Positions 9,726 through 63,888 of a stretch of DNA of 64,000 nt are shown in pieces. Source of the stretch: Octopus sinensis. Lineage: Eukaryota. The translations under genes and the position numbers were made by a program. Location: contig NC_043013.1 in NCBI RefSeq assembly GCF_006345805.1, positions 124,001 through 188,000 on the forward strand, given 5' to 3'. The notes under the pieces are model-generated. The model did no database searches. It saw only the letters and a program-made list of their open reading frames with translations, and was not told the origin of the DNA. Every line of letters begins with the position of its first letter. Position 1 is the first letter of the stretch.

Positions 9726-10095
9726 TACAGTTTTATATTTAAAATATGAGGAATTATGTACATTATTTACATTTGACGGATATTTGTCCTCATCTTGTTT
9801 GTTGTTAACACAACATTTTGGCTGATATACCCTCCAGCCTTCATCCGGTGTCTTGGGGAAATTTTGAACCTGGGTTCTTATTCCTAAGGTATTTTTCGAT
9901 GTTATTATAATTACTATTATTATTATTATTATTATTCAGGTCACTGCCTGGAATCAAACTCGGAATCTTGGAGTTAGTAGCCCACGCTCTTAACCAATAC
10001 GCCATATACCTGTGGGCATATGGCATAGTGGTTCGAAATTTCCCCATGACAACAAACAAGATGAGGACAAATATCCGTCAAATGCAAATAATGTG
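9726..10095 (-). mobile_element. Family A tRNA-head + hammerhead element: full minus-strand copy plus a head-to-head, internally deleted plus-strand copy; 11-bp TSD
   Basis: Minus strand has a tRNA-like head (~9940-10010), (AAT)n, and a mutated HHR (CGGATGA...AAAATGTT, ~9807-9852). Inverted terminus at 10050-10095. CATTTCAACTA at 9714-9724 and 10096-10106. Confidence 0.85.
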
Positions 10096-11089
10096 CATTT
10101 CAACTACTGTAAAACAGTTTGTAAAAATCCTATAGAAATGAATTGAAGAAATGAGAAAGACGAGAAATTCAGCAAAGCCAACTACATCTAAATCTGACCA
10201 TCAAATGCAGCTTGTGCACTGTTTTGTGCAATGATCAGTTATGTCAGTCATCAGAAATATTAAGCACAATGAATGGTTTGTCTGAAGAAAACTAAACTTA
10301 CATGGAAAGCTGCAATTTGATCAATGAATCATAAGCAGATAACACGCATATATGAGTGATTGGGGCCGCATTTGGTTAACAATCTGAAATTGTAACAACA
10401 AACTACGAGTGGACTGTGCAACATGTCTAATATGTGCTGAGAGAGCATGCATGAATGGTGTCCTAAATGAACAAATTGTATAGTGAGTGAACAGTTTTTC
10501 TGAAGAAAATTATATTCAACCAACAAGCTGAAATTCAAACAACAAACCACAAATAAACTATGCATGCATATAAGTGGCTGCAAATACCCAAGTACGCATT
10601 TCATATAACTTGCAAATCTTTATATTTTATAGGTGAAATAAACATCAGAGATGCTTTGCTACTCAGAGGTTTTGCAAGTTCTTCTGAATCCATTACAATG
10701 ATGGAAAGCCTTCTGCATCAAAATTAGGTTAAGTATTATTTGTTAAATACAGTTGCTTTGAATTTGCTTCAGAAAGATGTTTATGGTTGTGATGGCTAGT
10801 TGGAGTGGGAGTGCTGGGAATGTGGCCTGGGTGTCAAAGGGGCAGCAACCCGAAAATATTTGGGAACCACTGGCACAAGTGAAGCGATAATTTGTGCAGA
10901 AGCCAAACAGTTGTCTGATGATCTTAGAGTGAATTCTGCCAGTGGAAGTGATACTATGAGTACTGAATTTTCTTGCTTCGAAGAACTGGTTTACCAGATT
11001 CCATGCCATTGTGAGGTGTGGTGAGTCTGCTACTGCAAACACTAAACCAACTCATGAGTACCACATTGTGCTTTTAAACATCAGTGACA

Positions 11090-12060
11090 AGGGTAGCTTT
11101 GTTTCACAACCAAGATAAAACACCAGCTGGTTTACAAAACAAAAAATATCAGCTCTATTATTTAAAAAAAAATACGGCTGGTTCTATGCCTCATAGAACA
11201 CAAGTCATATTAGAGAATTTGTGCAAGGCCACAAAGTGATGAAAGACCAGCTGACCTTACTTTCTATACAAATGCTTCTGAGGATTTGTAAGCTAAAATC
11301 TTCCCCCATTTACCATTCAGGAACCTAATCCCACTTCCCAAGAATTCAAAAACATTCATAAGAATCATCTTGATGTTTTCTGGCAGCTGAATTACAAGGC
11401 TTTGATGACTAAGAATCTTTTCACTGAGTGGTTGTTTGAAGTGTTTGGCCCTACTGTGCATGAATACCTTAGGGACAATAATCTTCTCCTCAATGCCCTT
11501 TTGGTCATATATAATATCCCAGCCTACCTTCCATATTTTGATAGACCAATTACTGGAACAGATCAGATTTGTAAAAGTGCCTTTCCTGCCTCCCAACACA
11601 ACTTCCTTTCTCTGGTCCAAAGGACCAGTAAGCCATTTCTAATATTAAAAAAAAAACTCTATAAAGGCTCTCTTTAGAAAATGTTTTCAGGCCACTGACC
11701 CTTGGAAAAGTCAGTTTAATATTGCTGATGCAGGGAAGCTTGGAAACCAGTTTCAGTGTGCTGTTTGCATGCCACTAGGTGGTCACTGTAGCCTGAGAAC
11801 ATGCTTCTAAGAAACTTTGGTAGGACCCTATTGTGCAAGAAGTTGTCAGTCTGAGAAATTCCAGGAATCTGGAAAGGAAAATATTCTTACTTAGTATCAC
11901 AGAGATTTGTCTGGTTGTTGGAATAAAATCTCTAAATTAACCATTGAATATGTCCCTGACAGAGCTGCTGTGGAGCTGGGCTTGAATCACTTCAATGGCA
12001 CAGTAATGTGCCATTCAAGTAATGGCCTAACTTTTGGAAGCAATCAACCCTGGATGCCTT
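11090..12060 (+). pseudogene. Decayed Tigger1-like pogo transposase fragment
   Basis: Remnants GHKVMKDQLTLLFYTNASEDL, MTKNLFTEWLFEVFGPTV..ALLVIYNIPAY and FLPPNTTSFL match Tigger DDE motifs; frameshifted. Confidence 0.8.
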
Positions 12061-13449
12061 TTTTAGGAAGAAGATAATCTTCGACCATTCAGAAGAACCA
12101 GAAGAATGTGTACACAAGATGTCTATGAAGGAGGGCACTTCTCCTCCAACCTTTTCTCATTAATGTCCTCCTCCTCTACCTTTTCTTTGCATCCTCAACA
12201 CTTTGCTACACTCAAGTAGGATACATTTATTTACAGGCATTATTACTTTATTGATTTATTCCTTATGTATTTCTTCATTTGTTCAGCATCCATTTTCCCA
12301 TGCTGGCCTGGATTCGGACAGATATTTCATTAGGAACAGGATTTTACAGCCAGGTCTTTCCTGTCACTAATCTTTGTTTTCAAGTAAGGGATATCATTTT
12401 ATTCTACAGCTTTAGGATTTTCCTTGTCTATGAAACAACGGTCAACCCAGACGTCCCTTCATAAAGAATTACAGACAAGTTGAAGCCAAATATACATGTA
12501 AACATAAACAGTTCATTTACAATTATTGCAAACATGTTTAGACAAAGAGAAAAACAGACACGCATGCAAACATACACTTATTTATATGCTTAGGTATTTT
12601 ATGCATTTGTTACTGATGGAAGGATGATGAGAAAAAAAACACCATTTCATGCCTCTATGTAGAGTTTGGTTGCAGCTTTGAATAGATTACTTCTACTTAT
12701 ATGTATTTCAATTACTGATGTAACGAATAATATGGCTAATGAACAAGACTCCAGAATGGATTAACTTCATTTATAGAGACTTCCCTGCAATCACAAATGA
12801 AGAAATGCTGTCACTGACAATAATTATATTTAAGTCCAAAACGCTTCTGTACAGTTTCCGTCTACCAAATTTTGCTGACAAGATTATGGATGGAAGATTA
12901 TTAATAAAGTGCTGCTGCTTGGTGAGACTGAACTTGGAACCACTTGGTTGCAAAGTAACCATTTTGAGTGGAGAAGGCACAGCTGGTCGACACAACCCTT
13001 AAAATGTAATAAGTACTCATTTCATTGCTCACCTCCCCCCCTCCCCAACCAACCCAATACAACCAAGGATGAAAATCAAAGTCAACTGCAATAGTAACAG
13101 AACTCAGAGTGCAAAAGAATGGAGTCCAGCACTTCACTGATTCTTCTAACTTGACATCAAATAATAAGGACAGCTTTTACAGGGTCACTTAACAGGCTAG
13201 AAATAGCAACCAAATCTCTCTCATATAACACTCAAACACCTTGGAAAAAGGAGACTTTGGAAAATATGGTTCTGTGTTCTTTGCACATAAATAAAAGATA
13301 GGAGACTGACATCTCTAAAGTCTTTAATCACAGATCTGCTGAAGTTAGAAACCAGAAATAGTTTCTAACATAAGCATAAGACCAGAAACTTGGATGAGGG
13401 GTTGGTTGAGTAATTCAACCTTAGGTATTGCACTGGTACATTAAGACAG

Positions 13450-14933: not shown

Positions 14934-14978
<45 letters not shown>

Positions 14979-15559
14979 AGACAGCAATATTTTTCTTCCA
15001 CCAACCGCTGGAAAGTGATCCATGATTATAAATTATTTAAATATAAAATTAAATGCTTCAAATGAGTTCTTGATAAATGGAGGAGTTTGTTAGCTAAGTA
15101 GGACAAGGCTTAGATAATTAAAAATAAATTAATAAATTATTTGAAATAAAAATAAACAAGTACACAAAAAGATGGCTGCTTATAAGTTCCTTTTAACTGA
15201 GAGAGAAAGAGTAAGATGCATAAGTGTCTTGTGTGTACATAGGTGTATATAACTATATGTGTGCATATATAGTTTAAGAGAGAGAATGTGCAGAAATGTG
15301 TATCTTGCTCAGTAGTTGTATCATGTCCAACTCAGTAAAAACACGATGCCCTGTTTCATAATCACACCAAGCTCTGCTTAATAACTGCATCACACTCTCC
15401 TCAGTAAGCCTGCTATGTTCCATATTATATTGCTCTCAGTAACCATGGATCGTTATGCATATTAACAATCATCATCATCATTTTTCCATGCTTGTATGGG
15501 TTGGACAGAATTCACAGAGGCAGATTTTCTAAAATGGGAGATGCCCTTCCTGTTGAAAT

Positions 15560-16156
15560 AATACATTTCTAAATTTCTCATTGAGATTTATGCAGTAGCA
15601 GCATGATGAAGTGATAGTATGTCTTCAACTTAATGTGGCAGTCCCATAAAAGGGAAGAATGATACTGTTATTTAGCCCTAGGAAACACCGTTCCCTGTTG
15701 GACTCGACACTTTTCCTGTGCCCTTGTGTTTTCAAAATGGAGTCAAGCACCTCCACCTAGGGCTAAATAACAGCAGCATTCTTCCCTTTCATGGGACTGT
15801 CACATTAAGTTGACAACATACCATCACTCTATCGTGCTGCTACTTCATAAATTTCTCTGAGAGATTTAGAAATGTATTATTTCTATTTTCAAAATCAGTG
15901 GATGTATTTCACTTGGAATATATATGTTTTCAAAGGCAGATAGGCATCTCCAGGTAGCAAGCCATGCTACTCCAGACTGATGATGAGCAATGACTCTGAA
16001 ACTAGTCTCTGGGTGCTGGCTTTGCTTGGTGGAGGTGCTAGTCTCCACTTTGAAAACATAAGAACAAAGGAAACAGTGTTTCCTAGGGCTAAATAATGGT
16101 AGCATTCTTTCCTTTCATGGGACTGTCACATTAAGTTGACAACATGCTATCACTTT
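15560..16156 (+). mobile_element. Family B Penelope-like/retrozyme-type insertion: inverted unit + partial direct unit + HHR-containing unit
   Basis: 15560-15680 is the reverse complement of ~15757-15880; the unit recurs in direct orientation at ~16030-16156 after the HHR; another copy lies on the minus strand at 45490-45660. Confidence 0.75.
15972..16012 (+). ncRNA. Minimal type-I hammerhead ribozyme (intact core)
   Basis: CCAGA-CUGAUGA-uGAGcaaugaCUCu-GAAAC-UA-GUC-UCUGG; stem I CCAGA/UCUGG, stem III ACUAGU palindrome, GUC cleavage triplet at 16005-16007. Confidence 0.85.
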
Positions 16157-17973: not shown

Positions 17974-18237
17974 TACATTATTTACACGGACATATGGTGT
18001 AGTGGTTAAGAGTGCAGGCTACTAATCCCAAGATTCCAAGTTCGATTCCAGGCAGTGACCTGAATGATAATAATAATAACATTGAAAAATACCTTAGGAA
18101 TGAGAACCCAGGTTTAAAATTTCCCCAAGACACCTGATGAAGGCTGGAGGGTATATCAGCCGAAACGTGTTAATAACAAACAAGATGAGGACAAATATCT
18201 GTCAAATGGAAAGAATTCCATGTCTCTTAAAGAACTG
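17974..18237 (+). mobile_element. Family A tRNA-head + hammerhead element with a short inverted 3' end at its 5' junction; 12-bp TSD
   Basis: A-box TGGTGTAGTGG and B-box GTTCGATTCC (~17987-18058); HHR CTGATGA at 18134-18140 and GAAAC at 18162-18166 (3-nt deletion at the cleavage site); TACATTATTTACA at 17974-17986 is the reverse complement of the family 3' end; TAATATGATTAG at 17962-17973 and TAATATGGTTAG at 18238-18249. Confidence 0.85.
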
Positions 18238-22900: not shown

Positions 22901-23101
22901 TCTATGTAGCCTTCAATCTTACCAATATAATACTGAAACCTGTAAACACTCTCAATACCCTATTAAACCCTTTTGATACCAACCTGCCAAAGACCACCTT
23001 TGATTCTAAAGTGATCTTGATTTTGAAAACCTTTATTCAAGATTTCCCTGTTATGTTCCAAACACCAGCTTAATATGATTGTAATGTTTTGGTGACAATG
23101 C

Positions 23102-23140
23102 TTTGCTGAAGAGGTTTAATAAGACTGAAATATGTCCAAA
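23102..23140 (+). ncRNA. Minimal type-I hammerhead ribozyme
   Basis: UUUG-CUGAAGA-GGUUUaauaAGACU-GAAAU-AU-GUC-CAAA; stem I UUUG/CAAA; GUC at 23134-23136. Confidence 0.75.
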
Positions 23141-24180
23141 TTCTTTACCACAGATCTTAATTTTAGGGACAACTGAAATTTCTAGAGTTCTCCCTTTTGC
23201 TCCTTTTGATAAATTTCCATCAATACTAATGACTTCCCTTCACATTACAATAATATCAGATGAAAGTAAAGATAAAAACAAAAATAAGATTAAAGAGCTA
23301 GGATGACCATTTACTTGCTAAACGGTCATCCCAGCTCTTTAATCCAAGCTAAAGTATGCATGGTCAAACTTTTCAACTGATTAAAAATCATTTTCATTTC
23401 ACTACAATAAATGTCAGCCTGCACTTAACTATATGCTTTTTGTGCAGAAGGAATCCTGGGAATATACATTGCCCTGAAAATGGCACAACAATTATCCTGT
23501 TCAACTGCCCTGGTTCAGCTGTGAAGGGAGATCTGAGTGGCTGGTTGTATGAACCAACTACCAACAGAATTGTAACACTGGGTTGGAAGGAAAGGAGGAG
23601 CAAATGCTGTGGAGCAGTGGGTGGAGGCTGTGACAATGAAGTAGATGTGAAGGGGTGGTAGAGAGCTAAAGGGAACTTGAAATCTGTCTGTTTATATTTC
23701 CCATCTGATGTTTAGGTCTATTGAGGTGACTTACACCTCTCAATCACAATGACTTCATATTCTTATAATATAGTCAGAATAAAAACTATTTTTATACTAT
23801 AAAGAATATGGCACAAGAGGCTCCAAAGAGCCAAAACTAACCTACCAATTCTAATGTTTACTGGTCCATAAGTACATTGGGCTGTCAACACTGTATCATT
23901 ATGTAAATTAGTTGTACTTAATGCAATGCTGTTTGTATTTTAACGAGTGGGCCTCTCAATAATGCTTGACAGCCTCAACGAAAGAGGTAATAAAAGTTCT
24001 AAGTTCAATTTTTATCTAAACTGCAGAAAATAAATAACAAACTGTGGTTTAACCATGGATCTTAAATTCACAATGTGACTAAATATATATAACTCAGTAA
24101 ATATTTATGCAATGAGTTGTTTTTTTTTTTTCCAGCAAAACTTATATACTCATTGTGTGATCTGCTGTTTTGGTGACTGC

Positions 24181-24219
24181 TTCGCTGAAGAGGTCTAACA
24201 AGACTGAAATATGTTCAAA
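24181..24219 (+). ncRNA. Minimal type-I hammerhead ribozyme (second family C copy)
   Basis: UUCG-CUGAAGA-GGUCUaacaAGACU-GAAAU-AU-GUU-CAAA; GUU at 24213-24215. Confidence 0.7.
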
Positions 24220-25317
24220 CTTTCTACTATACCTGCCACAGATCTTAATTTTGGTGGCAATTGAAATTTCCAGAGTTCTCTCCTTTGATCCTTAAATTTC
24301 CATTAATTCTAATAACTGGCTTACCTACTACGATTATAATTTCAACCGATTGAAAATCATTTTTGACTCACGTTAAATATGTCAGCCTGCACTTAACTCT
24401 ATATTTTTCAAGCAGAAGGCATCACTGAGAATATTTATTCATAAAATTTAAATATTGTCCACTGAAGAAATATAACAAAAACGATTGCAGAGATTTCAAC
24501 AGTGAAAGCATAAAAAAGAGGCGGGAAAACCAGTTTACTTCAAAAGGTTTACTTAGAAAGACTACATTTAAAAATAGAATTCCTGTGGCGTAGAGGTTAA
24601 AGGTCAAACTCGTATTTTGATTCATTTCAAGGCATTTTATGTATCAACAACACAAAAAACAAATTCCACTCCTTCTCGCTTATTTTTCTCTATCTCCTAC
24701 TAATACTCATTTCACGGTCGAGTGGGTCGTGTCACAAAAGGCACTCAACTGTTAAAAATTAACGGAAAAACATCTGCTTTAAGAATACATTACAGAATTA
24801 ACGAATTTGTAGGAATATCCAACCTCTGAATTTAAAAATCTAGTTAAAATCTTATTAATAAAAAATAATATCGGAAAATTATTTAAAAGTTTAATTCCTA
24901 CAGGCGATTCATTTTTACATTGATACAAGATCTCTGATATAGGATTGGAGGGGAGTCGGGGTGATTTTTATGCTTTAAAATAGCACAAACACATTTACAT
25001 ATATAGAAAATGAGGTAAAACCTTTTTCAACACGAAGTCATATAAGTCATATACTGTTAAACATGATTTGCGTTAGATTTCATATTTGAAAGCAATACAA
25101 ACAAATGACCTGAAGGAGCTTATTATGTGATCGCTCAACCTGCTAGAAAAAGCAGCCAAATTAACCTCAATTTACACTCTGTCGTCTTTAATGAAAACAC
25201 AACGAGCAATGTAATTTTTGATATACTTTAAAAAAAAAGACATGAGTACGAGACAAACAACAGATTAGTAGAAGTCGACGTAACGAAGTTTCCACCGTTC
25301 AAATAAGCTAAAAATAG

Positions 25318-41197: not shown

Positions 41198-42958
41198 TTG
41201 AATGGCAAAATTAGTAAACTATCTAAAGAGCACATTAGTAAAAAACACCATCTCGCCTGGAAATCCATCGAAGACCTATCAGTCAAAAATTCTGGGTCAT
41301 TAATTAGAATTAAAGGGGGATCAGCTAAGAAGCGTTTAGAAAATTGGTCAACCCATTTTAAAAACCTTCTTGGGAAGAATGCCAAAATCCCTGATAACCC
41401 CACTCTTCCAAGTGTGCCTATATCAGACACGCTGGACATCAACACCTCCCCTTTTACCATATTTGAACTAACAGCAGCCACCAAGCAACTAAAAGCCTCG
41501 AAAGCATTTGGTCCCGACAACATCCCAGCTATAATTTGGAAGGATGATAGATTTCACACACCTTTGCTCAACCTCTGCAACCACACACTTTCCACCTTTG
41601 TTGCTCCAAAGATTTGGCACCAATCTCAAATCATCCCAATATCCAAAACAGGCGACTTATCCCTCGTCACCAACTACAGGGGTATATCTCTAATGTCAAT
41701 TGCTGCAAAACTGTACAACAAACTGATCCTAAATCGTCTTGTCCTTTTTGTTGAACCTTTGCTCCAAAAGAACCAAAATGGATTCAGACATGGGCACTCA
41801 ACACTGAGCCAGATACTATGCCTACGCAGATTTATTGAAGAATCAAAAGCATTTAATCGCGATTTTGAAATGGTAGTTGTAGACTTTTCTAAAGCGTTCG
41901 ATTCTGTAGATAGGTACAAGATGTTTGAAATCCTTCAGCTCTATGGGATACCAGACAAAATCATTTCTGCCATCAAGGTCCTCTACACAGATACGTCTTC
42001 AACCATCTTAACCCCTGATGGAGAAACATCATCTTTCTCAATCAAAGCCGGAATACTGCAGGGAGACACGCTCGCCCTATTTCTTTTCATCATTGTTGTT
42101 GATTATGTGCTACGTATGTCAGTTGATACCATCTCTGGCAAGGGCTTTGAAATAAAACCAAGAAGAAGTTCCAGACACCCAGCTGAGTACTTGACAGACA
42201 CTGACTTTGCTGACGACATCGCTCTTATCAGTGATTCTCTCTCCAATGCCCAGTCTCTTTTACAATCTCTTGAACAAGCCTCAAATTGTGTAGGTTTTTA
42301 CCTCGATGAGGCCAAGACTGAATACATAAACAAGTGCCTGTCCAACAGTGATTGCATCATCCATACTCTCAACAATGCCCCCTTAAATATGGTTTCTGAT
42401 TACAAATATCTTGGGTCATACATATCATCATCTGGAAAAGACTTTCTAACTAGAAAGGGTATGGCCTGGTCAGCCTGTAATGACATGCATAAGATCTGGT
42501 CATCAAATCTAAGTAGAGACTTCAAACTTGAAATCTTCAAAGCCACAGTTGAACCAATTCTACTATATGGCTCAGAAACCTGGACGTTATCAAAGAAGCT
42601 TGAGAGGCGGTTGGATGGAACCTACACTCGCCTCCTTATGAGAGCTCAAAACCTCTCGTGGAAGCGCCATCCAACCAAAATGCAAATATATGGGAAACTA
42701 CCACCTGTGTCATCTCTTGTGAAAGGTAGGTGAGTCCAGTTTGCTGGACATTGTTATAGAGCTGAAAACGAGGCAATTTCTACTCTTCTCCTCTGGAAGC
42801 CATCTACTCGCAATACCAGAGGGCGCACACTCTCCTACCCTGATGTAATCTCCAGGGATACAGGCATCCAGCAACAGGACCTCCGTAATGCCATGATGGA
42901 CCGTGAAGTCTGGCGTAGCATGGTAAATTGCATTGTCTCGACCACGGTCGAACAATGA
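41198..42958 (+). pseudogene. LINE reverse transcriptase ORF, with the APE domain lost and one premature stop at 42731-42733
   Basis: RT motifs GPDNIP, NYRGISL, QNGFR, VDFSKAFDSV, GILQGDTL and DFADDIAL, plus YKYLGS and LLYGSETW; after the stop the frame continues VQFAGHCYR...MMDREVWRSMV..VEQ* to TGA at 42956-42958. Confidence 0.93.
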
Positions 42959-42967: not shown

Positions 42968-44740
42968 TTAGTTGAATGAGTTGACCCCAGGACTTATTCT
43001 TTGTAAAGCTAGTACTTATTCTATGGTTCCTTTTACCAAACCGCTAAGTTACGGGAATGTATACACACCAGCATCGGTTGTGAAGCAATGGTGTGGGACA
43101 AACACAGACACACAAATACATACATGTGTGTGTGTGTGTGTGTATATGTTTTTACACAGGAAGCTGAATTTGGACTATATCCTACAGTCCCTTAATACTT
43201 TTCTGAAATAGCCGTTTGGACTGATCCTTTTTAATCACCTCCTTTAATATACTTTCTACTTTCATGATACCCCTTATATACATTTTCATGTTTTTTATGT
43301 TTATTTTTTATTTTTTATGCTTTTTATTTTTATTTTTCATTTTTTTATTTACATTCTTATATTTTTATGTGAGAGCACCATCCGAGCGTGTTGTTGCCAG
43401 AGCAGCTAACTGGCATCCGTACCAGTGGCATGTAAAAGGCACCATTCAAGCATAATCGTTACTAGCGTCACCTTACTGGCACTTGTGCTGGTGGCACATG
43501 AAAAAAACATTTGAGTGAGGTCGTTGCCAGTGCCGCTGGACTGGCTCCTGTGCAGATGGCACATAAAAAACACCGTTTGAGCGTGGTCATTGCCAGTACC
43601 ACCTGACTGGCCCTCGTGTCAGTGGCACGTAAAAGCACCCACTATACTCTTGGAGTGGTTGGCATTAGGAAGGGCATCCAGCTGTAGAAACTCTGCCAGA
43701 TCAGATTGGAGCCTGGTGCAGCCCCCTGGATTTCCAGACCCTGGTCGAACCGTCCAACCATGCTAGCATGGAAAGCAGATGTTAAACGATGATGGTGATC
43801 ATGATGACGACGACGATTTTTATACTTTTATATTTCTACATTCTTAGTATCTAACTCTTAATATAAACATGTGAATATTTGTATGGAATAATGCTTCTTG
43901 TCAGACATCTGAATTGTGAATTTGCTTGTCTGAATGTTTAAGACAATTATTTGAAATTATCATCATATACTAAATTTTATATGTATATGCATATATGATG
44001 GGTTTCTTTCAGTTTCCATCTACCAAATCCACTCACAAGGCTTTGGTCAGCCCGAGGCTATAGTAGAAGATATTTGCCCAAGGTGCCATGCAGTAGTACA
44101 GAACCCAGAACCATGTGATTGGGAAGCAAGTTTCTTACCACACAGCCACTCCTATAATATATGTAAGATTCAATTGAATAAGGTAATTAAGTTGATGCAC
44201 CTAGTTAAGGCGGAATAATATACATACACAACAATAATTTGCAAATATCAACCTTGGTATTTAAGTACCGGCAGAATGAAATTCCTGTAGGGCTTGCAGA
44301 AAATCAGATTCAGCCGAGTCTAGAATCCCCTCTTGAGCCATTCAGACATGGACACTATTAAATGTACAGTCTATAATAAACTTCAGAATATGTGGAGGGC
44401 ACATTCTGAGACAGGTGAATGATATATAAATAAATAACAAATGAAGGACAGGTGTCAATCCATCATATGTATATTGGGTCATCCTATAAATAATGCAATT
44501 TTTTATACATCTTTTATATTTCAAAATTAAGATAAACAAAGTTCTTTTTTAATCTAAAATATACTTTCCTTCATTTTCTACAATGCTCTTCCATCTATCT
44601 GGTAGACTTGCAAGGCCCTTCTTCCAAAATTCACTTATCCGTGACAACAAATATTTACATTAGGATACATTTGTAATACTCAGAATATATAGACATGTGT
44701 ATTCCAAACGTATCCTAATGTAAATTTTATTGTCCATTGT

Positions 44741-44845
44741 ACACCCTGATGATTTTCCATACAAGGTAATTAAAATGCAAAATTATATATTTATATATAT
44801 TTTGTAATTTTAATTTTGCTTGTGAAATGAAACAATTGTTGGGGA
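44741..44845 (+). ncRNA. Minimal HHR with long AT-rich stem II (family D); stem I decayed
   Basis: CTGATGA at 44746-44752, ~75-nt self-complementary stem II, GAAAC-AATT-GTT at 44829-44840 (ACAAUUGU palindrome). Confidence 0.65.
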
Positions 44846-44890
44846 ATATGATGATTAATTAATAAATTAATTTGTATCCATTAGATCTCA

Positions 44891-45486
44891 CTGTTTTCTA
44901 ACTTAATAATGTTTGATATTTTATGATATTTTATATAATATATTCATTGAAGAATCGTCTCTTCGAAATTTATTTTATTAAACCAGTGTATCTTGGATAA
45001 ATATCCTTATAAGAGGTTTGAATATCTTCATTCTGACTAATATATATATATATATTCTTTTATTCTTTTATATGTTTCAGTCCAATGACTGTGGCCATAC
45101 TGGAGCACCGCCATTGTGATCATCTTTCTACTTTCCACCTTTGTCGGAGCGGCTTTTGGTGAAGGATGAAGTTCAATGCTACTGTCCTCTTTTGAGTTTC
45201 TTGCTTAGATATTGGTTCATCCTGGATCTCGGTGAGCCAGAGTTCAAGTTCATGTTTGAAAACATTTACATCCACTCCATGAAGGCTCCTCAGATGCTTC
45301 AGCAGACAATTAAACAGCTGTGGGCTCCTGAAACATAATATATATTAGTCACAATGAAGATATTCGAACCTCTTATAAGGATATTTATCCAAGATACACT
45401 GGTTTAATAAAATAAATTTCGAAGAGCCGATTCTTCAATGAATATATTATATAAAATATCAAACATCATTATTGAGTTAGAAACAG
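44891..45486. repeat. Inverted repeat with ~150-bp arms (44891-45045 and 45340-45486) downstream of the family D HHR
   Basis: AAACCAGTGTATCTTGGATAAATATCCTTATAAGAGG vs CCTCTTATAAGGATATTTATCCAAGATACACTGGTTT. Confidence 0.85.
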
Positions 45487-45669
45487 AATAATATATTTCT
45501 AAATCACTCAGGGAGATTTATGCAGTAGCAGCACGATAGAGTGATGGTATGTTGTCAACTTAATGTGACAGTCCCATGAAAGGGAAGAATGCTACTGTTA
45601 TTTAACTCTAGGAAACACTGTTTCCTGTTGGACTTGACACATTTCCTGTGTACTTATGCTTTATATATA

Positions 45670-52522: not shown

Positions 52523-52564
<42 letters not shown>

Positions 52565-52971
52565 ATACACATATATATATAACTCCCAGAAAGTTAGAGG
52601 TTGTGAATCCAACCCACTAAGGGATAATATATATCCAATATACTGCTGGTAGAATACCCAATTATTAATGCACAAGTTTTTTTTATTGCATTACAATTAC
52701 ATTACCAGTGTACTAAATGGGTGAAGGTAAAGAGATATTTTACCATTAATTTATAGAGCAATAAGAAAATGGAGGGGATCAATAGGTGGTTCATCAACTT
52801 TTAGACATTATATTATGTTAACTTATTTATTTATTTACTAAACTGATAGTTACAATAATATACATACATATTACATATTATGCTTTACATATAAGATATA
52901 AAATATAGTATTATATAAGGATACCAGTAATTATTATAAAATAAAATAACAAACATGGATATAAATTGGGA

Positions 52972-53100
52972 AAATAACATACAGCTGTTTCAGCTAATAG
53001 ATAAAAATACCTCATTCTACCTTTATTACTCAAGTGGAGTGAAGTAATAGGTAGATGAAAATAAGGTACTTGGGTATATCTCTAGGCTTTGTCAGAGATT
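52972..53100 (-). ncRNA. Degenerate minimal HHR with ~95-nt stem II (family E)
   Basis: Minus strand CUGACAA (likely CUGACGA with CpG decay; 53089-53095) ... GAAAC-AGCU-GUA (52980-52991; ACAGCUGU palindrome); stem I poor. Confidence 0.5.
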
Positions 53101-53819
53101 ATAAAGTACATAATGTTAAGTTATAAATAAATATAAATATAAACATAAATATAAAATAAATAAAATACACACACGTTTGAATACTTATATATATAGACAT
53201 ACATATACATACATATATAGATATACATAAATACCTATATATATACTGAAATATACATACATATTTACATCTATAAACATATACAATAATATGTTATTAC
53301 AAATATTGTTAATATTAGATGCATTCTGTTATTCACAATAGATATAATATAGTATATAGAATATAATATATAAACAGATATTTTTGAAAGTTATAAGGAT
53401 AGTCATTTTACAATCAATATATCAATCTATCATAAAGTTATTACAGTTGTGTCAAAACTAACCTGCTTACACATGAGAACATAAAAAAACAACAAAAGCA
53501 TGGAAAACAAACTTTCTTTCGGACAACGAAAGCACCAAATAGAGAAATGAGACAGGCAACATAAAGAACAATCCCTTCATCAGTTGTCCACTGTTTTATC
53601 TAATCCGTGTTTCGAAGGTTAGGACAAGATACGACTTCATTATATATATATATATATACACACACACATACATATATGTGCCCGTGTATATTATATGTAT
53701 ATTATATGTATATTATATTATCTTTTATCTTGTTGCTTGTTTCAGTCATTAGACTGTGGCCATGCTAGGGCACCCTCCTGATGGTACATATTTTCTTTTG
53801 CCTGAGACCTTGGGCAAGT

Positions 53820-54502: not shown

Positions 54503-54790
54503 CATTATTTACATTATTTACATTCAACGGATATTTGTCCTCATCTTGTTTGTTGCTAACACAACATTTCAGCTGATATACTCGCCATCCTTCATCAGGT
54601 GTCTTGGGGAAATTTCAAACCTGGGTTCTCATTCTTAAAAAAAAAAAAAACACCTTAGGAATGAAAACCCAGGTTTGAAATTTCCCCAAGACACCTGAAG
54701 AAGGCTGGAGGGTATATCAGCCGAAACGTTGTGTTAACAACAAACAAGATGAGGACAAATATCCATTGAATGTAAATAATGTAAATAATG
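54503..54790. mobile_element. Family A fold-back: two 5'-truncated, head-to-head copies, each with an HHR
   Basis: Arms 54503-54636 and ~54655-54790; plus-strand HHR at 54690-54735 GACAC-CUGAAGA-aGGCUG..CAGCC-GAAAC-GUU-GUGUU (intact); minus-strand HHR at 54558-54603 (GAAAU variant). Confidence 0.88.
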
Positions 54791-54889
54791 AAAATGTTGT
54801 ACTGCTGGCATTCACAGTGGAAGCTCCAATACGAGCATTTCAGAGTGTTTGGGTGTCAATCTGAGGACATGTACCAAAAGTCATAAAAA

Positions 54890-55542
54890 TCAAACATCCA
54901 GTCAACATCATGGTGTTTGGAGTGATCACTAGTGATGTTGATGTTATGCCTCCATTCATCTTCCCACATGGCCTCAGACTCAGCATGGAGGCCTACATCA
55001 AGTGCCTGGAGGAGGTAGTGCTGCCTGGGTTAAGAGAGTGGCTGCTGGAAGACCAACAGGACTCTGCACCATGCCACACAAGCAGGAGAACCCATTCATG
55101 GCTTTCAGACAATTTCTGCGACCACGCCACCTCTAACATCTGGCTACCAAACTCCCCAGACTGCAACCCCCTTGATTATTATGTGTAGGGCGCAGTTGAG
55201 TGAGAGACCAACAAAACTCCTTTGTAACACCAAAGATGAACTGAAGGAAAGGGTTATGGCAGCATTCACCAACTTAAACAAGGAGACTGTCCAGAAGAGT
55301 TGCAGGAGATTTGGAAGTCGTCTGGAGGCCATGGCTAAAGCCAATAACGATTTTATAGAATAAATTTACTCTTGAGTATTTCAAGATATTTTTATGCAAT
55401 TTTGGTAAATGACAGCATCGTCCAACCCATGCCAGCATGGAAAGAAGACGTTAAACAATGATGATGATATCTGTTAAAATGAGATGTCAGTGTTATTTTC
55501 ATTTTTGCATATTTTAGACAACAGTTTATTCACCACACCCTC
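54890..55542 (+). pseudogene. DD37D (maT-family) Tc1/mariner transposase fragment with right end
   Basis: MVFGVITSD..QQDSAPCHTS...WLPNSPDCNPLDYY; 37 residues between the second and third catalytic D; C-terminus SRLEAMAKANNDFIE. Confidence 0.85.
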
Positions 55543-55585: not shown

Positions 55586-57579
55586 TCATCATCATCATCA
55601 TCGTTTAGCGTCTGTTTTCCATGCTAGCATGGGTTGGACGGTTCTACTGGGGTCTGTGAAGCCAGAAGGCTTCATCAGGCCCAGTCAAATCTGGCAGTGC
55701 TTCTACGGCTGGATGCCCTTCCTAACGTCATATATATATTTATATATATATATACATATATATATTTATATATATATACATATATAAAGATATACATACA
55801 CGTGCTAGCACGGAAAACGGATGTTAAACGATGATGATGATGACATATATATATAATTGAGATTCAGTTGAATTAGGTACTGAAGATGAAACACTAAGTC
55901 AGTCCAGTATTATCTATACAGTTCGAAGTAAGGTGAATAAAATCAAAATAAGCAACAGGATATCAAGAAGTGATGCAGTACGACCGTCTCAAGCAGCTGC
56001 ATTTAATTGAACAATGACAGAACCGCCTGACTGGCACCCGTGCTGGTGAGACGTTAAGAACACCATCCGAGCGTGATCATTGCCATGGCCGCTGACTGGC
56101 TCCGATGCCAATGGCACATAAAAAGCACCATTCAAGAGTGATCGTTACCAGCATCGCCTTACCGGCATTGTGCCAGTGGCACGTGAAAAAAGCAACATTT
56201 GAGCGACGTCATTGCCAGTTCCGCTGGACTGGCTCCTATGCAGGTGGCACATAAAACACACCATTTGAGCATGGCCGTCACCAGTACTGCCTGACTGGCC
56301 CTTGTGCCAGTGGTATGTAAAAGCACCCACTACAATCTCGGAGTGGTTGGCGTCAGGAAGGGCATCCAGCTGTAGAAACATTGCCAGATTGGATTGGAGC
56401 TTGGTGCAGCCATCTGGCTCACCAGGCCTCAGTCAAACCATCCAACCCATGCCAGCATGGAAAGCGGACGTTAAACAATGATGATGATGATGATTTTAAC
56501 AGAGCAAGAAAATGGAAGAAATTCATGTTGTAGCTAAGAATAGAATACATTTCCAAGAATTGCATGAAGCCTATTGGGGTCATAGTGTTGTTCCATGAAT
56601 ACATGACACATTCAACCAGTATCCAAAGTTTCAAACAGTTTAGTTAAAAAAATTAAGTAAAAAATCTGTGACAGATTGAATAGATCCGAAAGCGATGCCC
56701 CAGCATGGTCGCAGTCAAATGACTGAAACACGTAAAAGAATAAAAGAATACACACACACACACATATATATACCAGGCTTCCATGTAGTTTCCATCTTCC
56801 AAATTCCCTCACAAGGTATCAGTTGGCCCAGGGCTATAGTAGAAGACACTCACTCAAGGTGCTGTGGAGTGGAACTGAACCCAGAATTATTTGGGAAAAG
56901 AACCAGCTTCTTAAGCACACAGCTAAGCCTGCACCTAGAATAGCATTGATAACTTTAAGGGTGAGTCATGATGGCCACCATTAAAGAGGGTAATGACCAC
57001 CATTATTACTACTACTACTACGATGATGATGATGACGATGATGATGATGATGATGATGATGGCAATGCTGGTCACTGCTTTTCTCTAATTCTTCTTCCCA
57101 TCCCCATCTTTTAGACTAAGCTTTTTTTCTTTATTTCTTTCCATGAAGCTGGATACTTGTTTACACCATGTTCAGTCATGCATTTCCACCCACCCCTCCC
57201 AACACCATCTATGTATTTTAGCTTCTCCATTTGACCTTTGTGACCTTCCTCCCTTCTTATTTCCATGGACCCTTTTCTTGTTGCACCCCCCCCCCCCCCC
57301 GCACCACCACCACCACTACCACCATGCTAACCCTTCCTTTCCTCTTTAGCTCTGACCAGAAACATATTCAGGTGGGTCTCAAGGATCTCAATCAACCTTT
57401 GTGTGTGTGTGTGTGTACATATATTCATACATACACACACACCCACAAACATGCATACATACATACACACACACACAGAGTCAGGCAGACCAATGGAGAG
57501 ATTCTATATTAATCTTTATGTGAAAAGTGTTCACTTATGGATGCCTTTATACATGTCTTTGACAGTGCTTCGCTCTCTC

Positions 57580-58363: not shown

Positions 58364-58383
58364 TATAAATATATATACATATA

Positions 58384-59709: not shown

Positions 59710-59740
<31 letters not shown>

Positions 59741-60521
59741 ATGTATGTATGTATGAGTGTATGTTTACTTTATTACTAATTACTCTCTTCCAAGAACATT
59801 TTCACTCACTCTTAGCTCTTAGCTTCCCATACATTTTACTCATGTATCTATCAGCGTCATAGACAGAATACTTTCACTTTAGTCTTCCTCAAATCACTCT
59901 GTCGCTATTTACTTTCATTTTATTCGTTGCCCACTGTGTGTGTGCGTTTGCGTGTGGTGTAAACCAGACTAAGAAAAGCATTTGACACACACACCAGAAT
60001 GTGAGTTTTCTGTAAATTTTGCTTAATTGGAGTTTAAATTTTAAAAACTGGACCTGGCATGACGCGATGCATTGTACTCTTAAAAATGCTATGTAAATTG
60101 TAATTGAAGAAATCCTATATTGTAGATTTGTATAACTCCCAAAGGGAGGCAGATAAAATCTGCCTTTTATAATAAGAGATACATACACACACACATATAT
60201 CATCATCATCATCATCATCGTTTAATGTCCATGGGTAAAATTAATTAATTAGTAATTAATAATTCCACCAAATAGTATTCAGCATGTTAAAAGGACCATT
60301 TTCGGTATATTTAAACAATGTGTTTTTATAATTATGAGTATAATTATAATTAGGGTTCAGCAAAAAAATTTGCTTAACCACATACCGAACTTTAGAAATA
60401 GCAACCCAAAAACTTAGCTATTTCTTCTACTATAAGAAGCAACTCCCAGACAACATATACTTAAACCAACCAACGTAGGCATAGAGGAAAAAAACAACAA
60501 AAATTCACTCAGTATTAGATT

Positions 60522-60604
60522 ATCTGTGGACGCGTTTCTGAGTTAGATATGGAAATGCAAAATTCACATTTTACATTCAATCATTCTCTTCATCAGCACA
60601 AGAT
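60522..60604 (-). ncRNA. Minimal type-I HHR (family F, intact core)
   Basis: Minus strand AUCUUGUG-CUGAUGA-aGAG...CUCa-GAAAC-GC-GUC-CACAGAU; ACGCGU palindromic stem III. Confidence 0.8.
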
Positions 60605-60662
60605 TTCAAGCTTTTAAATTTGAGAGCACTAAAAATATTAAACATACCTATATATATATATA

Positions 60663-61460
60663 TATACAATAATATGTTACATTACTCGATAGTCAAGATA
60701 AAACTCTGAGTTTCAGATGCCGAAGTGGAAATCCACAACACCATCTCTTCGGTTATCTGGCTATTTGAAAACGCTATGAAAAAATACCGTTATATAAAGG
60801 GAAATTACTGTGTTATAACTCTGCTTGCCTGCGTACTTATACATCGCTCGCATTTTTCGTCATAAAGATTATATAAAAATACATTAAAAATATATAAAAA
60901 TATATAAATCTTCTTGGACATAACATAGAAAGCATGTTCTATCTGTTTTCTTTAGGGGACCAAAACGTAACAGAAATTTAGTCACATGTGGCATGATCCG
61001 AAAAGCAGCTTAGACCCTACTACATGTCTAAACACAAGGACAGAGCTTTTCGGATCATGCCCACATGTGACTAAATTTCTGTTACGTTTTTGGTCCCCTA
61101 AAGAAAACAGATAGAACATGCTTTCTATGTTATGTCCCAAGAAGATTTTATATATTTTTATATATTTTTAATGTATTTTTATATAATCTTTATGACGAAA
61201 AATGCGAGCGATGTATAAGTACGCAGGCAAGCAGAGTTATAACACAGTAATTTCCCTTTATATAACGGTATTTTTTCATAGCGTTTTCAAATAGCCAGAT
61301 AACCGAAGAGATGGTGTTGTGGATTTCCACTTCGGCATCTGAAACTCAGAGTTTTATCTTGACTATCGAGTAATGTAGCATATTATTGTATAGATAAATT
61401 TCCTCTATTTACATAATATTGAGGTTTCTTTCTTTCTTTTGTTATCTTACCGTTTTACCA
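60663..61460. mobile_element. Family G fold-back insertion: ~345-bp arms, 38-bp spacer, unpaired 3' tail, HHR in each arm
   Basis: Arms 60663-61006 and 61045-61392; HHR at 61298-61358(+) GAUAA-CCGAAGA-GAUG..CAUC-U-GAAAC-UCAGA-GUU-UUAUC with its mirror at 60697-60757(-); flanked by (TA)n. Confidence 0.88.
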
Positions 61461-62379
61461 ATATATATATATATATATATATATATCATCATCATCATCA
61501 TCATCATCATAGCGTCCGTTTTCCATGCTAGCATGGGTTGGACGTTTCAACTGGGGTCTGTGAAGCCGGAAGGCTTTATCAGGCCCAGTCAGATCTGGCA
61601 GTGTTTCTATGGCTGGATGCCCTTCCTAACGCCAACCACTCCGTGAGTGTAGTGGGTGCTTTTTACGTGCCACCCGCACAGGTGCCAGACAGAGCTGGCA
61701 AACGGCCATGAACGGATGGTGCTTTTACATGCCACCAGCACGGGGACCAGGCAAGGCTGGCAACGGACACAAACGGATGGTGCTTTTACGTGCCACCCGG
61801 CACGGAGGCCAGACGGGGCGGCGCCGATCTGTAGCTCTCCTTTCATCTCCTTCTCTCATACATTAACCCTCACTTAACATAAAGACACCTACCCACCCCT
61901 ACCCCTGTATGGTTCTCTTACAAGCTGTATGGCTACCTCAGCAGTGTCAATGGCATGAATAAAAGCATCCAGCACATGCTGTGGAGAAGTCAGCATTTGG
62001 AAGGGCTTCCAACTGTAGAAGCTAGGCATAATGCAGCATGATGTAATGCTAGACTCATTGGATCTTTGTCTAAACCGTCATGGAACATAGATAACATATG
62101 ATGATGATGATGATGATGATATATGTATGTATGGAGGTATATATATATATACATATATAATATATATCCAGCTGTAGAAATACTGTCAGATCAGATTGGG
62201 ACATGGTGCAGCCTCCTGGCTTCCCAGACCCAAGTCGAACCGTCGAACCCATGCCAGCATGGAAAATTGACATTAAACGATGATGATGATGATAATATAT
62301 ATAATAAATAATATATAATCTATATATATATATATGTATGTATTTATGTATGTATTTATATATATATATATAATTTATT

Positions 62380-62415
<36 letters not shown>

Positions 62416-63123
62416 TCATCATCATCATCATCGTTTAACGTCCGTTCTCCATGCTAGCATGGGTTGGACGGTTCGACCGGGGATCTGGGAAGCCAGAAGG
62501 CTGCACCAGGCTCCGGTCTTATCTGGCAATGTTTCTACAGCTGGATGCCCTTCCTAACGCCAACCACTCCGTGAGTGTAGTGGGTGCTTATTACGTGCCA
62601 CCTGCACTGGTGCCAGACGAGGCTGGCATCGGCCACGGTCGGATTGGTGCATTTTACGTGCCACCTGCACGGAAGCCAGTCGAGGCGGCACTGGCTTCGG
62701 CCACGATTCGGATGGTGCTTTTTACGTGCCACCGACACGGAAGCCAGTCGAGGCGGCGCTGGCATCAGCCATGATTCGGATTGTGCTTTTTACATATCTC
62801 CAGTCCAGGGGTCCTGGCATCTGCCGGGTGCCAGTCATAGGATTGGTTCAACGGAGATGTACTTGCATAGCAAGTGACCTGATTCCAAGATGCAGCATGG
62901 AATTTTGTCAGTGAACAGGTCGTGGTCTCAAAGCGATGAAAATGTTTTGACAAATTATATTTAAATGTGGAAGTTAATCTAATGGATTTTGTGTGTCTCT
63001 TAAATGGCTTACAAACACCTTCCACTCTGCAGCTGTTTTCGTTCCAGCACACGATCTCAGATCAGGTCACTATGCAAGTACATCTCTGTAACATATATAT
63101 ATATATTATTTATTATATATATG

Positions 63124-63155
<32 letters not shown>

Positions 63156-63456
63156 ATATATATCATCATCATCATCATCATCATCATCATTTAACGTCCG
63201 CTTTCCATGCTAGCATGGGTTGGACGGTTCAACTGGGGTCTGGGAAGCCAGAAGGCTGCACCAGGCCCAGTCAGATCTGGCAGTGTTTCTACAGCTGGAT
63301 GCCCTTCCTAACGCCAACCACTCCGAGAGTGTAGTGGGTGATTTTATGTGCCACCGACACAGGTGCCAGACGAGGCTGGCAAACGGCCACGCTCGGATGG
63401 TGTTTTTTATGTGCCACCGACACAGGTGCCAGACGAGGCTGGCAGACGGCCACGCT

Positions 63457-63708
63457 ATGTGACAATTATTCGGTAGCCATGATGAAACTCCGAGTTTCGG
63501 ATGTCGGGGTGGAAATCCACGCTGCCATCTCTTCAGTTATCGGCCAACTGAAGAGATGGCAGCATGAATTTCCACCTCGGCATCCGAAACTCGGAGTTTT
63601 ATCATGGCTACCAAATAATTGTCACATATCACATGTACAGATAAATTCCTCTATTTACATAATATCAAGGTCTCTTTCTTTCTTTTGTTGTCTTACCATT
63701 TCTATCAA
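63457..63708. mobile_element. Second family G fold-back: head-to-head HHRs plus the same 3' tail
   Basis: Palindrome 63457-63627; HHRs at 63481-63541(-) and 63545-63603(+) with CUGAAGA and GAAAC-UCGGA-GUU; tail GATAAATTCCTCTATTTACATAATAT matches 61393-61460. Confidence 0.88.
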
Positions 63709-63718
63709 TATATATATA

Positions 63719-63888
63719 TATAAGTATATGAAAGAATGGAGTTGAACGACTAGATAACAAATATCCTTTATTCTTGACATATGTTTCGAAGGCTGCATAT
63801 TCCTAATTCCGCAGCCTTCGAAACATATGTCGAGAATAAAGGATATTTGTTAACTAGTCGTTCAACTCCATTCTTTCATATACTTATA
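63719..63888. repeat. Near-perfect palindrome (~78-bp arms) containing the 3' half of an HHR (family H)
   Basis: Centre GAAGGCTGC-14 nt-GCAGCCTTC followed by GAAAC-ATAT-GTC (63820-63831) and AATAAA. Confidence 0.85.

Follow-up and report, generated by a model that had tools for sequence, protein, structure and literature searches.

Within 64,000 nucleotides of the Octopus sinensis genome (RefSeq assembly GCF_006345805.1, contig NC_043013.1, forward-strand positions 124,001 to 188,000; hereafter, the window), there are 15 hammerhead ribozyme motifs, 14 full and one half, which raises the question of what kind of genetic elements carry these motifs and why so many lie together. A preliminary description, made from the sequence alone, considered them an unusually dense set of non-autonomous ribozyme retroelements from about 8 unrelated families. 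A check of the sequence recovered all 15 at the coordinates and on the strands reported there, and self-BLAST sorted them into 8 families, denoted A to H. The answer that we favor, with a probability of roughly 0.7, is that minimal hammerheads reside in the 3' ends of at least 8 families of Penelope-like elements (PLEs), left in the genome as 5'-truncated, often palindromic stubs, and that a tRNA-like segment within the 3' tail of one of these families, A, likely gave rise to a Pol III SINE.

Denoted by start position, the motifs at 9807, 18129, 54558 and 54690 belong to family A, 15972 to B, 23102 and 24181 to C, 44741 to D, 52972 to E, 60522 to F, 60697 and 61298 to G, 63481 and 63545 to G2, an older subfamily of G, and 63788 to H. 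Three pairs of motifs are the two arms of single palindromic insertions (54503-54790, 60656-61399 and 63456-63628), so that the 15 motifs represent 12 insertions. The elements in the window are the following.

9729..10035, minus strand: family A short element, with a 5' fold-back hairpin (~10011-10035), tRNA-like head (9935-10010), (AAT)n, broken hammerhead (9807-9852; U4G, G12A) and tail
10049..10098, plus strand: inverted partial copy of the family A tail, beside the 5' end of the 9729..10035 insertion
15555..16155, plus strand: family B insertion, an inverted arm and a more-than-unit-length copy of a ~347-nt non-coding unit
15971-16013, plus strand: intact family B hammerhead within 15555..16155
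17985..18237, plus strand: family A short element, with head (17988-18064), (AAT)n, hammerhead (18129-18171) and tail
23085..23465, plus strand: old, divergent family C copy; hammerhead 23102-23140 passes the descriptor
24166..24434, plus strand: another family C copy, lying 1,081 bp downstream at 79% identity; stem I of its hammerhead (24181-24219) is weak
44643..45047, plus strand: stub of family D with (TA)n at its end; its hammerhead (44738-44848) has a long stem II
52560..53430 (limits approximate), minus strand: family E stub ending in (TA)n; hammerhead 52972-53100 with G8A
54503..54790, both strands: palindromic family A insertion truncated before the head; hammerheads 54558-54603 (minus) and 54690-54735 (plus), the latter identical to the family A majority
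60233..60650, minus strand: stub of family F, whose closed non-coding unit measures ~600 nt; its hammerhead (60522-60604) is intact
60656..61461, both strands: 3' end of a family G PLE (Hydra clade, by motifs), arranged as an inverted pair that (TA)n runs enclose, with a tail of ~60 nt on one side
60697-60757 (minus) and 61298-61358 (plus): family G hammerheads, both U4C
61001..61111, plus strand: last 37 codons of the family G PLE ORF (tblastn, 100% identity)
63456..63708, both strands: G2 inverted pair; hammerheads 63481-63541 (minus) and 63545-63603 (plus), canonical CUGAAGA
63719..63900: family H palindromic stub truncated inside stem II; half motif at 63788-63831

By family majority, and with the exception of G, the motifs have the CUGANGA and GAAA core and the UH cut site of minimal type I hammerheads. 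No Rfam hammerhead family matched the window at E values up to 10, and the motifs were therefore counted with custom descriptors. The window contains 3 matches to a strict descriptor, compared with a mean of 0.03 (maximum 1) in 40 local dinucleotide shuffles, and 6 motifs with a score of at least 9, compared with 0.05 (maximum 1) in 20 shuffles. These six motifs are 15972, 23102, 44741, 54558, 54690 and 60522. The other nine fail the scored descriptor on account of two core changes (9807; U4G, G12A), a 3-nt deletion at the cut site (18129), a weak stem I (24181), G8A (52972), the family-wide U4C (60697 and 61298), a stem II one base out of register (63481 and 63545) or 5' truncation (63788). 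The core is kept in family majorities: those of C and H have it, and those of A, B, D, E and F satisfy the whole descriptor; the G majority departs from the core by U4C. The self-complementarity of stem III was borne out as well without being demanded: when only the core and stems I and II were required across 664 kb, stem III was a perfect palindrome in 8 of 15 matches, and in 13 of 15 when G.U pairs are included, whereas five-fold shuffles of the same DNA gave 2 matches, none palindromic. The stem III self-duplex has an energy of -1.7 to -11.1 kcal/mol, and the monomer hairpin is either impossible or at +2.1 to +6.0, which leaves stem III unable to close stably within a single copy. The identification of the motifs as minimal type I hammerheads with a self-complementary stem III, coming from many unrelated families, is supported.

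The insertions that carry these hammerheads share a common shape. The 3' end of the stubs is constant within a family whereas the 5' end varies, and inverted partners adjoin the 5' side; such a copy lies upstream at 20/30 loci of family A, 21/30 of G, 6/20 of D, 6/20 of F, 4/20 of B and 1/20 of E; the hallmarks of PLE insertions, namely, 5' truncation, an inverted 5' copy and a one-sided tail, are all present. The 3' end is marked by (TA)n in 13/20 copies of D, 15/20 of E, 15/18 of F, 22/28 of G and 11/11 of H, against a background of 7-21%, and in 1/29 copies of A and 3/20 of B.

Contrary to the preliminary description, in which no PLE coding region was visible, positions 61001-61111 (plus strand) encode, with 100% identity, the C-terminal 37 residues of a PLE protein of 717 aa. 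Family G, the source of this fragment, has at least 1,938 first-look candidate copies, the best of which are 98-100% identical; the unit is 2,590 nt long, and full copies have open 717-aa ORFs. Direct hammerhead repeats flank the ORF at all four widened loci (L281-L284), and family H has a locus (L271) with a hammerhead-ORF-hammerhead arrangement and a Hydra-like ORF. [quoted passage not shown] The 5' ends of 28 G copies are spread from -107 to -1607, with truncation anywhere and no pile-up. Pfam support for G is thin (GIY-YIG at E 0.039 on one copy, and no GIY-YIG match for the full G protein), a PDB search gave little, and the 120 listed of 825 homologues of the G protein (E<=1e-20) bear no informative names, so that the clade assignments rest on motifs. 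Judged by motifs read in its 717-aa ORF (RWK, DKT, a CxCX5C linker, CxxC and CxH near the end, no CCHH) rather than by a tree, family G belongs to the Hydra clade. The hammerheads of G, H and A sit in the 3' ends of protein-coding PLEs, so that the stubs of these families are truncated elements of the autonomous type.

The view that the hammerheads belong to non-autonomous elements holds for part of this collection. Families B and F are closed non-coding units, as seen from partial tandems with a period of ~347 nt in 5/20 B loci and 583-617 nt in 4/18 F loci, and most copies of A are short and non-coding; it does not hold for G, H and A in that these have coding parents. At least two tandem hammerheads were found at 1/20 B loci (L117) and at none of 18 distinct F loci. 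No sense-strand PLE ORF was found upstream of C, D or E (10, 20 and 20 loci, respectively), no ORF within ~300 nt upstream of D and E, and no PLE ORF between the two C copies in the window (23085..23465 and 24166..24434). The PLE ORFs that adjoin D and F at loci L269 and L270 point the opposite way.

The supposedly unusual density of motifs is weakly supported: with 6 matches per 64 kb, the window is on the high side of the mean of 2.2 (0-6.4) but is not exceptional. The same descriptor gave 14 matches in eight arbitrary 50-kb stretches (400 kb), or 1.3, 0, 3.8, 0, 1.3, 1.3, 6.4 and 3.8 per 64 kb, and 5.3, 7.5 and 2.4 per 64 kb in the neighbouring 200 kb. The comparison of the window with the controls yields p = 0.048, before allowing for paired motifs and for the choice of the window by its density. 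Counting by homology gives 16 versus 3.8 (0-11.5) per 64 kb, with a library biased towards the window's own families. The abundance of TA microsatellites was rejected as the cause of the excess, the window having 37 (TA)6+ runs per 64 kb within a control range of 12-107. The conjecture that such motifs make up a large part of the genome fared better: extrapolation from the 14 matches in 400 kb gives ~95,000 descriptor-passing motifs (95% Poisson range 52,000-160,000), and the 1.98 Mb of genomic DNA examined contains 37 sequence clusters of hammerheads. The density of motifs would follow from many families, each with many stubs.

Two accounts that dispense with PLEs as the common source can be weighed against these results. 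A chance origin of the motifs in AT-rich repetitive DNA might be entertained given that 9/15 window copies fail a strict descriptor and Rfam has no match, but it is already refuted by the shuffle controls (6 versus 0.05), by the membership of every motif in a dispersed family whose majority keeps the fold, and by the palindromic stem III, and we consider its probability negligible. The other account, that all eight families are non-autonomous retrozymes spreading via self-cleaved circular RNAs and that the window is a special hot spot, accommodates the closed non-coding units of B and F with their more-than-unit-length copies, the lack of an ORF within ~300 nt upstream of D and E, and the elevated count in the window (6 versus a mean of 2.2, p 0.048). 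Nevertheless, it appears very unlikely in view of the coding parents of G, H and A, the rarity of tandem arrays (only L117 among 20 B loci), and the two other stretches that match or exceed the window, with 6.4 and 7.5 matches per 64 kb; partial tandems, moreover, are also a normal shape of PLE insertions as described by Craig et al. 2021 (PMC8557442).

Dense and diverse hammerheads are a known signature of PLEs; the less ordinary part of this locus is family A, which has both a coding parent and a tRNA-like segment in its tail. Copies of A elsewhere in the genome comprise coding sequence for RT and GIY-YIG followed by the head, (AAT)n, hammerhead and tail, with the tRNA-like A/B-box segment ~30 nt behind the stop codon. 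At the 30 best endonuclease loci, one of them the query's own, the head is directly downstream in 27 and the hammerhead tail is present in 26. An RT fragment of the parent matches RVT_1 in Pfam (E 1.2e-9). All widened copies are broken, with no intact ORF among them, and the upstream direct repeat was likewise not seen in these copies. The motifs that can be read in broken copies (L300, L302 and L306), namely DKG, a GxKF-like motif and CCHH in the endonuclease, with no CX2-5CxxC linker, assign the parent to the Penelope/Poseidon clade, again by motifs and not by a tree.

The head aligns in register with genomic tRNAs, best with tRNA-Arg(TCT), with 49-51 identical columns of 77-80 (z 7.4-7.9; 6 tRNA isotypes compared). 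The Rfam tRNA model (RF00005) does not match the family A head, ARAGORN detects no tRNA in it at the default setting and 2/30 at a relaxed threshold, and no T4 run precedes the tail end in 4/4 copies checked. All of the 30 best head matches have 5' ends at -19..+1 and none runs into the ORF; the tail follows in 28 and an inverted partner is present in 24. This set includes the query and two apparent duplicates, and, because its members were ranked by their identity to a short copy, it may be biased towards such copies. Among 38 head matches from tail-selected and unselected DNA, counted after 12 duplicate loci were dropped, 1 extends into the ORF, whereas the start lies at -10..+5 in 19. A further 1.52 Mb of DNA, chosen without regard to A, contains 16 heads, 13 of them followed by the tail, and 0 endonuclease matches. 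Like tRNA-derived SINEs, the short form has a tRNA-related head with A and B boxes at its 5' end and a 3' tail in common with an autonomous partner (26/30 endonuclease loci), but this partner is a PLE, not a LINE. The possibility that a PLE tail landed in the (AAT)n tail of a separate SINE is rejected because the tail follows on from 13/16 unselected heads and 28/30 best heads, and because this junction also occurs in the parent. It seems probable that the 3' tail of a Penelope/Poseidon element took up a tRNA-derived Pol III promoter, releasing a ~300-nt hammerhead-bearing SINE that would use PLE, not LINE, enzymes and now outnumbers its parent, at roughly 4e4 short copies genome-wide as estimated from a small sample. 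A literature search by titles and starts of abstracts, with few subscription journals and no repeat databases covered, yielded no PLE-mobilised tRNA SINE and no octopus hammerheads. Ohshima and Okada are said to have described, in 1994, the tRNA-Arg-derived octopus SINEs OR1 and OR2, which family A resembles, by description and not by sequence, in its tRNA-Arg-like head and its abundance; repeat libraries may already list family A under one of these two names.

On the model of PLEs in the literature, the endonuclease would nick the target, RT would copy from the RNA 3' end, usually stopping early, and fold-back or template switching would make the inverted arm; the hammerhead, being 50-500 nt from the 3' end, is kept by almost every stub. 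For family A, Pol III would start ~3-8 nt upstream of the tRNA-like head and read ~300 nt, and the proteins of the parent would copy this short RNA since it has the parent's 3' end. Given that stem III cannot close stably within one copy, the hammerheads are predicted to cut slowly and only as dimers. The idea that hammerhead cutting defines the ends of the elements is unsupported by the starts of G copies: of six copies that have a repeat upstream, only one starts where the cut is predicted.

Two further alternatives leave the PLE origin of the stubs intact and concern family A and the ribozymes themselves. All families could be PLE stubs, with the short A copies being truncations of the long parent mRNA at a hairpin upstream of the tRNA-like segment, where RT falls off or folds back, and no separate short RNA. 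The parent carries the same head, a small 4-bp palindrome at -6..+4 of the head might on its own cause frequent truncation, a fold-back of the head stands at the start of many short copies, and sequence variants are, by eye, common to short and long copies. However, a structure should stall RT at its 3' side and not past its 5' end, and the observed ends fall at the Pol III start expected from the A box; furthermore, family G, which has no head of this kind, shows truncations scattered over 1,500 nt and no pile-up, and unselected DNA contains 16 heads versus 0 endonuclease ends, which together make the truncation scenario unlikely. Somewhat less doubtful is the proposal that the motifs are catalytically dead relics, or protein-binding or packaging signals in PLE tails, with no role in mobility, which can be combined with the origin of the stubs from PLE 3' ends. 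The youngest family, G, which has intact ORFs, shows U4C in 28/28 copies, an A9 that could extend the pairing of stem II and an alternative hairpin in which GAAA is sequestered, and integrated 3' ends all run through the cut site uncut; low activity is reported in Cervera and de la Pena 2014 (PMC4209133), and in the account of Craig et al. 2021 (PMC8557442) the function of hammerheads is unclear and Naiads thrive without canonical ones. Conversely, the descriptor is satisfied by the majority sequences of A, B, D, E and F, the core, stems and palindrome are kept in 37 unrelated clusters, and U4C, although less active in vitro, is described as sufficient in vivo for a viroid (PMC3088659).

The origin of the stubs from PLE 3' ends agrees with what has been described in other animals. 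Minimal hammerheads are known in the pLTRs of metazoan PLEs (Cervera and de la Pena 2014, PMC4209133), and those covered there share with the window the type I fold, a palindromic or absent stem III, a stem II that is bulged at its base, a multitude of families in one genome with mostly single truncated copies, and opposite-strand pairs 100-700 bp apart. Density and diversity being the pattern of that study, the window is not surprising in kind; a stem II of up to 100 nt in some families differs from its description. The estimate of ~1e5 motifs, about ten times the maximum given there (~9,000, Xenopus) with different descriptors, would place this genome among the richest reported for hammerheads. 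Family G resembles the Hydra clade as characterized by Craig et al. 2021 (PMC8557442) in its length below 3 kb, single ORF, RWK, DKT, CxCX5C linker, CxxC and CxH towards the end, GIY-YIG at the C terminus, (TA)n targets and hammerhead, but differs in the U4C core of its young copies; the H ORF has DKT, but the copies examined are without the CxCX5C linker. The Hydra family list in supplement S1 of that paper may include cephalopods. The parent of A is similar to the Penelope/Poseidon PLEs of the same account in DKG, the GxKF-like motif, RT, the lack of a CX2-5CxxC linker, two cysteines between GIY and YIG, inverted 5' copies and the one-sided tail, but differs in the tRNA-like A/B-box segment and in the short copies that far outnumber ORF-bearing ones.

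The short form of A, in turn, is comparable to the Schistosoma Sm-alpha and Sj-alpha repeats (PMC6765202), in which a Pol III promoter (predicted in A) is followed by a hammerhead within a short repeat. The schistosome repeats are in tandem, with no mobilising partner named in the available text of that source, whereas family A is dispersed, inserts as inverted pairs and has a partner identified by sequence. Families B and F are short non-coding hammerhead units like the non-LTR retrozymes, which have been put forward as non-autonomous derivatives of PLEs (Cervera and de la Pena 2020, PMC7229834; Li et al. 2026, preprint 10.64898/2026.07.22.740005); B (~347 nt) is within the retrozyme size range and F (~600 nt) is longer. 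Unlike the retrozymes of these accounts, B and F occur chiefly as single copies or partial tandems, carry minimal hammerheads, and are known here from DNA. The words "tRNA" and "promoter" do not occur in the main text of the Li et al. preprint.

If family A is a Pol III SINE, the rule that SINEs depend on a partner would extend from LINEs to Penelope elements, and the intermediate, an element of the autonomous type carrying a SINE promoter in its tail, would be at hand; with parent and parasite both preserved, this would be the birth of a SINE from inside its partner and would offer a concrete type of partner for hammerhead SINEs like Sm-alpha. This genome also allows a direct test of the role of PLE hammerheads, because the young family G, with intact ORFs, has U4C, whereas the older G2 has the canonical core.

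The hammerhead feature of the window is real. All 15 motifs of the preliminary description are located in the window as described, and self-comparison of the window resolves them into 8 families (A to H) and 12 insertions, three pairs being the arms of palindromes. A strict descriptor gives 3 matches in the window vs 0.03 in 40 shuffles, and a scored descriptor 6 vs 0.05 in 20 shuffles; the 9 window copies that fail the descriptor have an altered core, a deletion, a stem that is weak or out of register, or a truncation, and the Rfam search of the window returned no hammerhead match. When a palindromic stem III is not required, 664 kb contain 15 matches, 8 with perfect palindromes and 13 counting G.U pairs, and five-fold shuffles of the same 664 kb yield 2 matches, 0 palindromic. 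Stem III energies predict that these hammerheads cut as dimers only. The reported half motif proves to be a family H copy truncated inside stem II. Family majorities, collected via homology independently of the descriptor and with duplicate loci removed, retain the fold in A, B, D, E and F. An additional, heavily decayed hammerhead remnant, overlooked in the preliminary description, lies at 55963-56016 (-) and is 85% like a family from a control stretch.

Copies that pass the descriptor, by family
A: 25 of 29
B: 18 of 20
D: 11 of 20
E: 15 of 20
F: 10 of 18
G: 1 of 28

Across the 2.72-Gb genome, eight arbitrary 50-kb control stretches contain 14 matches in 400 kb (mean 2.2 per 64 kb, range 0-6.4), the 200 kb adjoining the window give 5.3, 7.5 and 2.4 matches per 64 kb, and the window itself (C17:124001-188000) gives 6; the 36 density shuffles yielded 1 match in total. 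Counted by homology, with a library biased to the window's own families, the window holds 16 copies vs 3.8 per 64 kb, and 1.98 Mb of fetched DNA contain 163 distinct matches in 37 clusters. The control, neighbour and cluster counts therefore indicate that density and diversity are genome-wide traits, with the window in the upper range. The claim that both are unusual here holds as a moderately high local level (about 2.7-fold over controls, p 0.048, raw for motif pairing and window selection); beyond that, dense and diverse hammerheads are an already known pattern of Penelope-like elements (PLEs). Extrapolation gives about 95,000 motifs genome-wide (52,000-160,000). Control stretches on contigs C1, C2, C9 and C12 are low (0-1.3 per 64 kb), and C5, C20, C26 and the end of C17, the contig of the window, are richer (2.4-7.5), in a sample too small for a trend with chromosome size or chromosome end. 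PMC4209133 describes hammerheads in PLE repeats, with many families per genome, truncated single copies and opposite-strand pairs, and PMC8557442 covers PLE clades and inverted insertions; a squid genome is credited with 235 Rfam hammerheads in PMC6962438, and PMC13282606, the main text of which does not mention ribozymes, presents 30 Penelope families with recent activity in an octopus.

Family G comprises at least 1,938 first-look candidates, with top identities of 98-100%; its copies all end at the same 3' position but begin anywhere from -107 to -1607. Upstream of its tail lies an ORF with a reverse transcriptase (RT) and GIY-YIG, 717 aa open in several copies, which is flanked by direct hammerhead repeats in four loci elsewhere in the genome (L281-L284) and of which the window copy retains the final 37 codons (61001-61111). 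Its sequence motifs (RWK, DKT, the CxCX5C linker, CxxC plus CxH), its unit length of 2,590 nt and its (TA)n targets fit the Hydra clade as defined in PMC8557442. Full-length family H copies pass the descriptor, and one H locus (L271) has the layout hammerhead-ORF-hammerhead, its ORF sharing 39% identity with the G protein across the N-terminal part. The core change U4C, treated in PMC3088659, occurs in 28 of 28 young G copies; the older subfamily G2 has the canonical core, and in G and G2 alike the active hammerhead fold faces competition from a hairpin containing GAAA. Among the 6 G copies with an upstream repeat, 1 starts at the cut site (+1), 1 at -12 and 4 at least 188 nt upstream. The family G data are compatible with hammerhead cleavage being dispensable. 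U4C is also present in a family at C17:30M and is thus not confined to family G. Beside the window (C17:64001-124000), three identical U4C-core hammerheads at offsets of about 10328, 14607 and 18875, spaced by about 4.27 kb, are likely a tandem array.

The proposal that the elements are non-autonomous survives for families B and F, closed non-coding units of fixed period, and is not supported for G, H and the parent of A, the tails of which adjoin ORFs. In B and F, the sequence downstream of the hammerhead reappears upstream at a period of about 347 nt (B, 5 of 20 loci, the window copy included) or 583-617 nt (F, 4 of 18 loci), and neither unit matched a PLE protein; PMC7229834 and the preprint 10.64898/2026.07.22.740005 treat retrozymes as PLE derivatives. 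Family C is an old family of few copies (10 matches). Families D (652 candidates) and E (1,050) both terminate at (TA)n, and no sense-strand ORF was found upstream of their loci. At 45338-45662, an inverted family D 3' end is fused to a family B fragment, both devoid of hammerheads; these are PLE-type stubs inserted side by side.

In 18 of 30 family A loci selected by the hammerhead-bearing tail, the tail is preceded by a 78-nt tRNA-like head with A and B boxes and an (AAT)n run, as in two of the window copies:

9935-10010 (-): family A head, with (AAT)n and tail behind
17988-18064 (+): family A head, with (AAT)n and tail behind

Aligned with tRNAs of its own genome, the head stays in register and matches Arg(TCT) best (z 7.4-7.9; 28 distinct tRNAs, 6 isotypes); neither Rfam nor ARAGORN at default settings identifies it as a tRNA. 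At one locus (L014), the upstream sequence enters an endonuclease coding region, and this peptide, used as a query, recovered 3,968 candidates; among the best 30 loci, 27 have the head downstream and 26 the hammerhead tail. Longer copies contain an RT (RVT_1), DKG and two cysteines between GIY and YIG, lack the zinc-finger linker, and have every ORF broken; judged by sequence against published clade accounts, the parent is of the Penelope/Poseidon type. Small internal deletions are frequent in the head and hammerhead region of the ORF-bearing copies (L289-L318).

The best 30 head matches all begin at -19 to +1 relative to the head, 1 of 38 other head matches extends into the ORF, and 1.52 Mb unselected for family A contain 16 heads and 0 endonuclease matches. 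The main competing explanation of the short form, preferential truncation at a small palindrome (-6 to +4), appears improbable, at perhaps one chance in five. The pairing of a coding parent with a probable SINE in family A is likely new. An internal Pol III promoter would produce a short RNA carrying the 3' end of the parent. Six tail matches in the 400-kb control correspond, as a rough figure, to 4e4 copies genome-wide. OR1 and OR2 are octopus SINEs. PMC6765202 reports Schistosoma Pol III SINE-like repeats bearing hammerheads, and titles and abstract openings in the literature yielded no description of a PLE-mobilised tRNA SINE. More generally, reverse transcription by PLEs, primed at the target and beginning at the 3' end of the RNA, would stop early and fold back, leaving palindromic stubs in which the hammerhead is nearly always retained, and (TA)n-seeking families would gather at shared microsatellites.

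Other repeats in the window
41198-42733 (+): open 511-aa non-LTR (LINE-type) RT frame (RVT_1, E 1e-26), not PLE, with no connection to the hammerheads seen
11264-11677: DNA-transposase remnant, DDE_1 match at 11297
2381-2772 and 54865-55363: DNA-transposase remnants, Tc1/mariner-like by eye, without Pfam match
33771-34351: tandem array, 83-bp unit x7, 99% identity
35146-36387: tandem array, 42-bp unit x30, in which three long repetitive frames stay open
62204-62508: palindrome of about 300 bp, its arms another abundant repeat and its centre (TA)n/(ATC)n
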